Source: a virus (taxonomy: Duplodnaviria; Caudoviricetes). From it: a stretch of 55,445 nucleotides of DNA. The notes under the pieces were generated by a model, which worked only from the letters and a program-made list of their open reading frames with translations, made no database searches and was not told where the DNA came from. Both the position numbers and the translations under genes were made by a program. Below, one piece after another: positions 23,231-25,465 of this stretch (its first letter is position 1; every line of letters starts with the position of its first letter). The stretch is taken from positions 1 to 55,445 of the IMG/VR virus record IMGVR_UViG_3300043654_000004. The stretch is one strand, 5' to 3'.

Positions 23231-25465
23231 ATGAGCTTTAGTCCAGCGGGCAATGCACTTAATAATTTGCCCCAATCAACCGTGAAGTTCTACGATAAAT
23301 AATCTTGTCGTAGTAAAACCCCCTCTAATTGACTTGAAAGCTGAAATGCCAACAAGGCGGAAATTACTTGACAAACAAGTAGTACCGTGAGAGACTAAAC
23401 GAGAGGGCACATTTATGAGAACAGTAGAAGAGATTAAAGAATATCAACGTAGATGGCGTGAAAATAACCGCGTTAAAATGCGGGAATATGCTAAAACGTA
23501 TCGTAAAAAGCACCGTGATGTTCCAGCACATCTTATGAGAAAATATGGAATTACTCCAGAAGATAAAATAAGGATGTGGAACGAACAGAATGGTCTTTGT
23601 GGCGTGTGCGGTGAAACAATGCTTTCGGTTTTTGACCGTAATTGTCAAGTTGAGCACGATCACAAAACAAAAAGGTGCGTAGTTTAGCTCATTGGTATTG
23701 TAATATTATCGTTGGCGTTATGGAAAAGCATCCAATAACTCTTGATAAAGTTGTGAAGTGTTTAAAATCTCATTGTGATGCGATAGTCCGAACTCATGGG
23801 AATTATAACCATGAGAGTACAGCAGAAATGCTTGTACCTTCTGAAATTTAGAAGTAACACTTATTGAAGAAATTCCGAGAGAATTTAAAGGCTCAAACGC
23901 CTTTCGTGGCGTGCGCTGAACGTCTCAATCTGCCCACTAATAGTGGTAATCAGTATGAAATGTTCATGTACGTTCCGCTAGCCGCTAGCACTAACCAAAC
24001 CACTGAGGGTACAGTTGGCAGTCCGCTATCCGTCTCCGTACTAACTACTACGGCTACGATAGGAGAATATGCGGACTACGCGAACTTTAGTTCGCTAAGT
24101 CTTGCGACTGCAATTGACAATACTGTAGAAAACGTAGCCAAGGAAATGTCGTATCGCCTTGGTGAGTCATTGTCCGCTCTTGTTCGTGCAACTTGCGACG
24201 GAGCGAACAGCATTGATTCTAGCGTGCTAACTCAGTTGGCCGCTACTAGCACTTCAAGCTTTACCGCACTTTCACTAAGCCAAATCCGAAACAGCGTTCA
24301 ATCGCTGGCGGGTCGGGCTGTGCGGCCCTTCGATGAAGCAAGTAAGAGCTTTGTCGGAGTCATCCATTTCGTGTTATAATGAGGGTGGATGTAAAATTTA
24401 ACTAAATCGGGGAACACCTTGTACGCTGTACAAGACAATCCCGAGGAAAGATTCCATATGATAACCACTGATAAAGTGGATTGGGCGTATCTGTCCGGGT
24501 TGTTTGATGGCGAAGGAACATTTAGTATTTACCACCATAAGGGGCAGAGTTCTAACGGCAATCCTTATGATTCAACTGCTATTCGTATTGAAATAACGAA
24601 TACGAAAATACAATTAATGGAATGGCTTGTTAAGCATTTCGGTGGTCAATACTATCATCATAGACGTGCAAGCGCGAAACATAACATTGCTTATGGTTGG
24701 CGACCGAAAGGTCGTAAAAATAGCGAGCAACTGTTGTTGAACATCTTACCGTATCTGGTAATTAAGAAAGAGCAAGCTAAGATCGCTCTTGAATATGTTC
24801 GACTTCCGCATAACACAGGATTTGATGATACTTTAGCAGCAAAGAGAAAAGAACTGCTGACTAAGATGCAACTTCTCAACAAACGTGGAACATCCGTAGA
24901 GACTAATACGTTAAACGGCGATAAGCCGATGATAGAGTCCGATCTCATAGGCGACTATGAGAGTGATGCTGTGGTGACACAGACATCCTAAACAATAATA
25001 CCTTTTGCTTTAGGGGATGTCCTTGCTGACAACAGCAATGACTCTCCTATCGATATCCTGAAACACACACCTGTGGGTCAGGCAAGAATGGACGAACTAG
25101 TTTCTGTTGATCTGACCGAAGTGATCGAACTTCCAAGTTCGGGCGTTCAGTTCTTTCAGACTAACCTAGTCACTCAGTCTAACAACTATAAATCAGTTGC
25201 TGGACTAGTTGGTCTTCGTACTTATATTTTCGGGCGAGATGGAGTTTTTGCCATCAATCTCGGAGCTAAGGGCGATACTGGCTACGGTGATGGTGAATGG
25301 CGCAATATTGAGTGCAACATTATGCAGAACGTTGCACCGACCGTTGCAGACCCCGAAGGTCTGATCCCCGGATGGACATCTTACAGAGTGCATTTTACTA
25401 CGTCACTCGGCCCTGATACTACCATCCGTCAACGTCAAATCGACGCTGCCTCAGCAATTAGTTAA
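23231..25465 (+). CDS. Major capsid protein, spliced (exons 23231-23296, 23867-24367, 25001-25465; 343 aa)
   Basis: Joined sequence MSFSPAGN...VKFYD|KKFRENLKAQTPF...FVGVIH|PFALGDV...; TEGT, EYADY and IHP are typical HK97-fold capsid motifs. Confidence 0.88.
23297..23866 (+). mobile_element. Group I intron 1 of the capsid gene (570 nt)
   Basis: P1 CTACGAU/GTCGTAG with U.G at the splice site; P10 TCTT/AAGA; P3 CCCTCT/AGAGGG; P7 GACTA (23393-97)/TAGTC (23784-88); terminal G 23866. Confidence 0.92.
23415..23851 (+). pseudogene. Intron-encoded endonuclease VII-type homing endonuclease with a frameshift
   Basis: KYGIT...QNGLCGVC...VEHDHKT; VRSLAHWYCN continues in the -1 frame after the A-run near 23669-23673. 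Confidence 0.78.
24368..25000 (+). mobile_element. Group I intron 2 of the capsid gene (633 nt), apparently ending in A
   Basis: P1 CATCCAU/GTGGATG; P10 GAGG/CCTT; P3 TTTAAC/GTTAAA; P7 GACTA (24901-05)/GAGTC (24935-39); P9 CTCATAG/CTATGAG. Confidence 0.88.
24458..24991 (+). CDS. Single-motif LAGLIDADG homing endonuclease (intron-encoded)
   Basis: WAYLSGLFDGEGTF; ITNT; ILPYLVIKKEQA. Confidence 0.92.
   Translation: MITTDKVDWAYLSGLFDGEGTFSIYHHKGQSSNGNPYDSTAIRIEITNTKIQLMEWLVKHFGGQYYHHRRASAKHNIAYGWRPKGRKNSEQLLLNILPYLVIKKEQAKIALEYVRLPHNTGFDDTLAAKRKELLTKMQLLNKRGTSVETNTLNGDKPMIESDLIGDYESDAVVTQTS

Follow-up and report, generated by a model that had tools for sequence, protein, structure and literature searches.

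The stretch of DNA analysed here (the window) is the 55,445-base IMG/VR record IMGVR_UViG_3300043654_000004, a linear viral record, estimated to be 58% complete, of an uncultivated soil phage with an intron in its capsid gene. The major capsid gene comprises three exons that join to give an intact coding sequence of 1032 nt (343 codons plus the stop), and it is the second of its two introns, a 633-nt group I intron containing a LAGLIDADG open reading frame (ORF), that is considered here. A terminal G is a near-universal feature of group I introns but the last nucleotide (ω) of intron 2, at position 25000, is A, and the intron really ends in A, not G. Comparison with related introns further indicates that this ending is no isolated oddity: within a large mobile intron family, A recurs naturally at the terminal position. 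The parts of the gene on which this depends, all on the plus strand, are as follows.

23867 to 24367: capsid exon 2, ending in FVGVIH (CAT 24365-24367, His); placed by protein homology
24368 to 25000: intron 2, group I, 633 nt, with a LAGLIDADG ORF; placed by protein-guided junction and RNA pairings
25000: last intron nucleotide (ω), A; from the sequence, contigs, junction scan and P9.0 pairing
25001 to 25465: capsid exon 3, PFALGD to the stop, with CCUU 25001-25004 in P10; placed by protein homology

The position of the splice sites is fixed by the capsid protein. The closest named relative, the major head protein of Tunturiibacter phage Tunturi_3 (a cultured relative whose capsid gene has no intron), is uninterrupted, is 81% identical over exon 2 and reads ..FCGVIHPFALGDVLSD.. 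across the junction, including GVIHPFALGD. In the window, positions 24995-25000 are ATAATA and positions 25001-25018 are CCT TTT GCT TTA GGG GAT (PFALGD), so that sequence and homologues alike bear out an earlier first-pass annotation of this DNA that used P10 and the IHP motif to begin exon 3 at 25001, after AATAATA. The motif G[VA][IV]HPF[AS][LV]GD is uninterrupted in 68 of 80 related viral loci, and HPF is present in all 47 full-length uninterrupted capsids. When all splice-site pairs were scanned exhaustively under guidance of the protein, a single best junction emerged, 24367|25001, with the runner-up 8 BLOSUM points lower; nor can this junction slide, as the bases beside the two splice sites differ. 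Because protein homology permits only 24367|25001, the 633-nt intron ends in A.

Junctions that would avoid this ending were considered and rejected. Splicing after the nearest upstream G (24982) gives ACA TCC TAA and hence a stop, and use of the G runs at 25013-25016 is no better, joining after 25015 removing PFALG; the first-pass annotation had been right on both counts. Pairs combining 25007 with U24368, U24374 or U24377 were rejected along with these, the junctions as a set giving a stop codon, deletions or non-conserved residues. One of these pairs, U24374|G25007, had been overlooked at the first pass and deserves separate mention, since it keeps both the reading frame and the protein length, with U at position -1 and G at ω, the capsid then reading IHFVSLGD locally. 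That the junction has been mis-mapped in this way is nevertheless hardly credible: the conservation of HPF and of the wider motif excludes it, the codons for PFA (CCT TTT GCT) begin exactly after 25000, the next-best junction scores 8 points below 24367|25001, the P1 U.G wobble, P10 and P9.0 (see below) all agree on 24367|25001, and the same architecture is found at the same site in two other loci (L203 and L100) and at another site in a third (L075).

Base 25000 is covered by contigs of four public runs, X1 (the possible source run) and those of three other studies (X2, 24545-25200; X3, 24787-25038; X4, 24777-25020), and is A in all of these assembled contigs, which were used in place of raw reads, with neither G nor any other letter listed. 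The X1 contigs are identical to the window over 24200-25200, and the contigs from the other studies differ in exon 3 at 25012 and 25015, both changes being synonymous. Agreement with contigs from three other studies led us to reject an error of sequencing or assembly at this base.

To place this ending in context, relatives were collected by a capsid-based search, from which the best 80 of 159 were kept, and by a scan for the conserved P7'-P9 core, which gave at least 119 stretches. Both proved far more productive than a protein search for relatives of the window LAGLIDADG ORF in viral contigs, which returned only 4 distant loci at 31-37% identity. Every locus had its junctions mapped from protein evidence alone, which gave 132 junctions and 65 distinct introns. 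Retaining those with the family core and U at -1 left 45 distinct introns in capsid genes of viral contigs; the family introns reported are these protein-verified capsid introns only. Among the loci listed, ω is G in 25 of them, A in 19 and C in one. The first-pass annotation had cited rare A exceptions in some mitochondrial introns; in this family, A is no rare accident. In five of the 19 A-ending introns, all at GV|IH, there are two options with U at -1, ending in A or C but never in G.

The A-ending introns occupy seven capsid sites (KA|QT, QY|EM, YA|DY, GV|IH, IH|PF, HT|PV and one near residue 57) and are found in at least 37 distinct contigs including the window, with one variant in 10 contigs; the distinct contigs were recounted by hand, because some loci are counted twice for a single contig in the per-intron copy numbers. 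At the window's own site the introns of L203 and L100 also end in A, and a 241-nt intron of another family, ending in G, occurs there too. Locus L075, whose capsid is 97% identical to that of the window, has a related intron at HT|PV, 57 nt further downstream; its 3' tail is the same as in the window intron, and it too ends in A. G-ending and A-ending variants share insertion sites, and a loose end in run X4 displays a G-ending tail at the GV|IH site. A tree of 42 intron-encoded LAGLIDADG proteins, which need not match the history of the ribozyme itself, requires 8 changes of terminal state, at least 5 of them forced by well-supported branches. These comparisons indicate several switches between G and A at the terminal base within the family. 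The window intron belongs to a large mobile family, with LAGLIDADG ORFs or ORF-less, that is spread over many capsid sites in soil and freshwater phages.

Between the window and L075 capsids, the ratio of non-synonymous to synonymous substitution rates (dN/dS) is ~0.03, a rough figure given that dS, at ~2.1, is near saturation. The ratio could be obtained for this comparison only, synonymous sites being saturated against most relatives. As the two capsid genes differ mostly at synonymous sites, both of these intron-bearing genes are, on this comparison, under purifying selection.

Judged by its pairings, intron 2 is a group I intron with an intact ribozyme core, comprising the P3/P7 pseudoknot, P4-P6, P8 and P9. 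The elements, again all on the plus strand, are listed below (the window is locus L002 in the family).

24361 to 24367: P1 5' strand, exon CAUCCAU, with U24367 the wobble base at the 5' splice site; read from the sequence, P1 7 bp
24381 to 24391: internal guide, made up of GAGG 24381-84 (P10), the wobble partner G24385 and UGGAUG 24386-91 (rest of P1); P1 7 bp, P10 4 bp
24397 to 24402: P3 5' strand UUUAAC, pairing with GUUAAA 24910-15
24407 to 24444: P4, UCGGGG 24407-12 with UCCCGA 24439-44, enclosing an A-rich J4/5, the P5 hairpin 24418-24434 and J5/4; read from the sequence
24450 to 24455: P6 5' strand GAUUCC, pairing with GGAACAUC 24887-24894 with one bulge, the ORF lying in the P6 loop; read from the sequence
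24458 to 24991: LAGLIDADG homing endonuclease ORF, 177 amino acids plus stop, running through P6', P7, P3', P8, P9 and P9.1; from ORF and Pfam
24899 to 24905: P7 5' strand G-A(bulge)-G-A-C-U-A, G24901 being the G of the guanosine-binding pair; sequence and family listing
24910 to 24915: P3 3' strand GUUAAA, pairing with 24397-402
24916 to 24928: P8 hairpin CGGC GAUAA GCCG; read from the sequence and aligned as P8 by Rfam
24935 to 24940: P7 3' strand GAGUCC, with C24939 paired to G24901, C24940 to G24899, and G24935 facing A24905 (mismatch); family pairing counts
24942 to 24943: J7/9 bases A and U, the P9.0 5' strand, pairing with U24999 and A24998
24944 to 24961: P9 hairpin CUCAUAG GCGA CUAUGAG with a GNRA loop; family pairing counts
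24965 to 24987: P9.1 hairpin GAUGCUGUG GUGA CACAG(A)CAUC; read from the sequence
24987 to 24994: conserved 3' tail motif CCUAAACA, the last intron base lying 6 nt beyond; family comparison
24998 to 24999: A and U, directly preceding the last intron base, the P9.0 3' strand; P9.0 analysis

P1 is formed by CAUCCAU 24361-67 and GUGGAUG 24385-91, with the U24367.G24385 wobble of a group I intron, and its mean length in the 44 G- and A-ending family introns is 7-8 bp. P10 pairs GAGG 24381-84 with CCUU 25001-04 (4 bp) and, with P9.0, flanks the 3' splice site. G24901-C24939 lies beside the bulged A24900 in the guanosine-binding site, a layout that agrees with the base-triple description given in the accessible part of PMC10020454. 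The P10 (GAGG/CCTT) and P7 (GACTA/GAGTC) pairings and the retained G-C pair had all been proposed in the first-pass annotation, and all are present. The fold is well supported across the family: P3 pairs in 257 of 258 cells, with covariation (43-45 distinct relatives), P9 pairs in 315 of 315 cells from 45 introns, with covariation at five of its seven positions, and the strands of P4 vary in step (UCGGUG with ACCGA, UCGGGG with CCCGA). Within P7, the outer pair covaries (A-U in 32, G-C in 12), and all 44 introns scored have G-C as the guanosine-binding pair. The A-G mismatch noted at the first pass (A24905/G24935) is real but, being shared by 39 of 44 relatives, most G-ending members included, it is not linked to the A ending and does not explain it.

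With relaxed E-values, the Rfam model Intron_gpI (RF00028) matches the window intron at 18.5 bits (E 0.11) against a cut-off of 50 bits, the ORF splitting the core; at gathering scores, the only Rfam match in the whole window was to a permuted transfer-messenger RNA (tmRNA). Loci with ORF-less introns pass the cut-off (L144, G-ending, 254 nt at 2351-2604 on the minus strand, 55.0 bits; L171, 51.4 bits; L093, A-ending, 50.3 bits), and in two of these, L093 and L144, a short hairpin occupies the P6 position. Relatives also carry GNRA-loop hairpins at the position of P9.1. Common to all members is CCUAAACA or a close variant, then ~6 nt and the splice site, the motif being kept in nearly all of them regardless of the terminal base. 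A search for a pairing partner for this motif found none. In the window, the UAA stop codon of the endonuclease falls inside it. A simple rule of tail motif plus 6 nt, applied to 92 distinct core matches, was rejected as too crude, since tails of 5 to 9 nt occur.

Evidence that A occupies the true end of the intron comes from P9.0. As defined in the accessible part of PMC10020454, but in this family with a spacer of one base, this helix joins positions two and three beyond the P7 3' strand to the dinucleotide immediately upstream of ω. In the window, these pairs are A24942-U24999 and U24943-A24998. Across the family, when only protein evidence is used to set the junctions, 36 of 40 unambiguous introns have a Watson-Crick P9.0, and the strands are complementary in all 14 unambiguous A-ending introns (AU/AU in six, AC/GU in five, AA/UU in two and AG/CU in one). 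When partners were shuffled among introns, the mean number pairing was 16.2 and the maximum 26 in 2000 shuffles, whilst slid registers gave 0 to 11. This pairing and covariation place A at the true terminal position, and the first-pass proposal of a group I intron with A as its last nucleotide is supported by fold, junction and P9.0 together. In the endonuclease tree, the window falls in a group of seven rows, all A-ending, with three P9.0 types; support for the group (Shimodaira-Hasegawa-like approximate likelihood ratio test, SH-aLRT) is 81 and does not reach the tool's mark of 95. Should this grouping hold, P9.0 would have undergone compensatory changes while ω was A, and such co-change under a terminal A would be hard to reconcile with dead introns.

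Measured as a contiguous helix, P10 has a mean length of 5.8 bp among the 19 A-ending introns and of 1.9 bp among the 25 G-ending ones, 15 of which have none, a contrast that is partly inflated (see below). At J7/9, bases other than AA are found in 15 of 18 A-ending rows as against one of 24 G-ending rows, the phylogenetic control for this association being underpowered (5 independent pairs, median p 0.125). The family listing contained no core change tracking terminal A in the P7 pairs, bulged base, J6/7 or J8/7; the P9.0 bases of J7/9 are all that differ. According to the accessible part of PMC2588497, P9.0 and P10 strongly raise binding of a terminal-G substrate.

Several further introns bear on the range of endings. 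A 212-nt ORF-less family intron in the capsid gene of L203 (3771-3982, plus strand) appears to end in C, with U at -1, complementary P9.0 (GA/UC) and a P10 of 6 bp, and it shares its site with the G-ending intron of L140. Introns at codon 3 (MAF|SPAG; L067/L163, L103, L195 and the first intron of L042) appear to be A-ending, their P9.0 types being UG/CA and UA/UA. Mapped by hand only, they are excluded from the counts; L067 and L103 yielded the 5' exon, whereas L042 and L195 did not. Beyond the mapped capsid sites, family members in L113, L114, L104, L109 and L089 seem to be A-ending by the tail and P9.0 rule, one example having a tail in ..UUA or ..GUA followed by CC[AU]AACGUGGUC.

What, then, might allow an intron of this kind to splice? 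The explanation that we think probably right as a whole, to judge from these comparisons, is that intron 2 is a genuine mobile group I intron in which the terminal A is tolerated. Free guanosine would occupy the normal pocket in the first step. For the second, P9.0 and the long P10 would do most of the work of holding the 3' splice site, so that a terminal A that binds the pocket poorly or in some other way could be tolerated. The capsid mRNA would then be correctly ligated in vivo, perhaps more slowly or with the aid of a helper protein. A more specific version, in which the RNA alone ligates exons with a terminal A (and in one member C) in an unchanged pocket, P9.0 and extended P10 specifying the 3' site and the last base being nearly neutral, is one that we put forward tentatively and would not bet on. 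How A might be accommodated is a matter of speculation: a protonated A could offer two donors to the pocket G.

A number of points weigh against this explanation. The splicing function of the A-ending introns is argued from comparative evidence, and all the relatives are known from metagenomic contigs, not from cultured phages of proven viability. The guanosine pocket keeps its G-C pair, without change, in every one of the 44 introns, and A is expected to be a poor partner for a G-C pocket: in the Tetrahymena intron, mutation of the terminal G reportedly blocks exon ligation unless the pocket pair is also changed. The presence of G- and A-ending variants at the same sites would also fit recurrent, mildly harmful G-to-A mutations. 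The contrast in P10 length is partly inflated, as the strict search misplaced the guide in several EM|FM G-ending introns (P1 of 3-4 bp), and one G-ending intron checked by hand (L009) has an offset P10 of 5 bp. The phylogenetic control for the association of A endings with long P10 gave 5 independent pairs and a median p of 0.125 and was likewise underpowered.

It might be, then, that a G-to-A change at the last base disabled exon ligation and that the window preserves a decaying intron from a phage lineage that is defective or short-lived. Mobile elements in the capsid gene do show some decay, as in intron 1, where the endonuclease VII-like ORF is frameshifted (see below), and the 5-8 or more changes of terminal state on the endonuclease tree are what recurrent mutation would be expected to yield; splicing, moreover, is argued from comparative evidence. 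Decay is very unlikely, however, given that A endings make up 19 of 45 distinct family introns in at least 37 contigs, one variant recurring in 10, that P9.0 remains complementary among them through three or four pair types, that strong purifying selection acts on capsid exons that are themselves intact and that the same A is present at 25000 in contigs of three other studies. Alternatively, a post-transcriptional change could act on the terminal A, such as deamination to inosine, which would mimic G and so reconcile the ending with the unchanged pocket. Inosine is indeed accepted by the guanosine site of the Tetrahymena ribozyme, less well than guanosine, but the context of the terminal A varies (UA|C, UA|G, UA|A, AA|U) without any common recognition motif and deamination of A cannot account for the C-ending intron of L203, so that we attach next to no weight to conversion.

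A further possibility, which is unlikely but has more to commend it, is that the second step depends on protein, the terminal A making exon ligation reliant on a maturase, whether the intron's own LAGLIDADG protein, that of another intron or a host factor. The first-pass annotation had pointed in the same direction. Such dependence would tie capsid synthesis to a helper protein, and would refine our preferred explanation of a tolerated terminal A without excluding it. It is favoured by the expectation that A should dock poorly in an unchanged pocket, and by the intact LAGLIDADG ORFs (167-306 amino acids) of all 18 A-ending introns in the endonuclease tree. The terminal-A intron ND5-717 of hexacoral mitochondria, discussed below, reportedly relies on host factors. 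Against it, G-ending relatives carry the same kind of ORF, which therefore does not track the A ending. The window ORF is a single-motif enzyme (PF00961, 29.2 bits against a cut-off of 23.1, residues 12-89) with a weak match to I-MsoI (E 0.005), and known maturases are double-motif enzymes, none being known from the single-motif class of I-CreI and I-MsoI. Nor does the A ending require an endonuclease in the same intron, since a 248-nt ORF-less relative (L093:3769-4016, minus strand; identical in L132 and L172) also ends in A. The contigs concerned have a 303-amino-acid LAGLIDADG ORF in another capsid intron, which leaves room for help in trans.

Evidence for homing is indirect, consisting of related ORFs in introns at many capsid sites, those of related introns being 43-46% identical to the window ORF, and of apparent intron-less alleles in the same runs. 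Contigs of X1 and X3 run from ..GVIH directly into PF.. with no intron (loose ends at 24346 and 25007), so that intron-less alleles co-occur with the intron-bearing phage. Such alleles are what a homing endonuclease would target.

The remainder of the capsid gene contains a second intron, belonging to another family, again on the plus strand.

23231 to 23296: capsid exon 1, 22 codons, MSFSPAGNALNNLPQSTVKFYD; protein-guided junction
23297 to 23866: intron 1, 570 nt, of another intron family, with U at -1 and G as last base; protein-guided junction (option -1=T, omega=G)

Intron 1 contains an endonuclease VII/HNH-like ORF (23406-23848, plus strand) that is frameshifted near an A run at ~23674; it matches PF02945 at 28.8 bits over profile positions 3-48 of 82 only, the rest lying in another frame. 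Insertions of 40-73 nt also interrupt the capsid frame in related loci (L036, L038, L047, L066 and L031, at sites YD|KK and QY|EM); they have U at -1 and G as last base and are far too short for a ribozyme. Elsewhere in the window, the permuted tmRNA gene lies at 513-738 on the minus strand (RF04321, 74.3 bits), and a tmRNA is found in a related viral contig (L171:8740-9007, plus strand, 65.8 bits).

The terminal G of group I introns has been treated as universal and catalytically essential, and is built into annotation logic and into the design of ribozymes and of RNA circularisation. Here one mobile family with a single catalytic core has G, A and once C at the terminal position. Where a pipeline demands a terminal G, splice sites will be misplaced and the major capsid protein consequently mis-called in many phage genomes from soil and peat. 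The family also provides natural matched G/A pairs, among them ORF-less introns of ~250 nt, with which to gauge how far P9.0 and P10 can stand in for recognition of the terminal nucleotide. Were ligation by RNA alone true, nature would offer an exception to the rule by which both steps of group I splicing are served by a single G-specific site. The question is also raised of whether the most abundant virion protein depends on a non-standard and possibly regulated splicing step.

In the literature, a 2014 review of bacterial group I introns describes, in its accessible part, the terminal G as the site of the second step (PMC3984707), and the accessible parts of this and other sources refer to it as typical or universally conserved (PMC3984707, PMC9223047, bioRxiv 10.1101/2020.01.27.920355). 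For phages or bacteria, our literature search turned up no description of group I introns ending in A, though as the omega sign is unsearchable and supplements were not covered, this does not prove their absence. The family resembles canonical phage introns such as T4 td, nrdB and sunY and the mycobacteriophage capsid introns in having an endonuclease ORF in a peripheral loop, a conserved phage gene as host, U at -1, P1, P10 and a P3-P9 core. Those introns end in G, however, and unlike them the present family has no P2 and an ORF that extends through the 3' half of the core.

Two systems with a terminal A offer closer comparison. Michel and colleagues in 1989 and Been and Perrotta in 1991 are said to have changed the P7 pair of the Tetrahymena ribozyme from G-C to A-U and combined this with a terminal A. 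Like that engineered ribozyme, which is said to ligate exons with a terminal A, the A-ending phage introns are group I introns predicted to do so. The engineered molecule reportedly needed the A-U pocket pair, whereas the phage pair stays G-C in 44 of 44 introns. The natural precedent found in the literature is the hexacoral mitochondrial intron ND5-717, which according to the accessible parts of PMC6545197 and PMC8146996 has a terminal A in place of G and yields correctly ligated exons in vivo. Known from sea anemones, corals and mushroom corals, it is like the window intron a natural group I intron with a terminal A in an essential protein gene, but a single, strictly vertical organellar one with genes inserted in P8. 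The phage family, by contrast, is mobile and carries homing endonuclease genes, and within it G-ending, A-ending and one C-ending introns coexist, sometimes at the same site.

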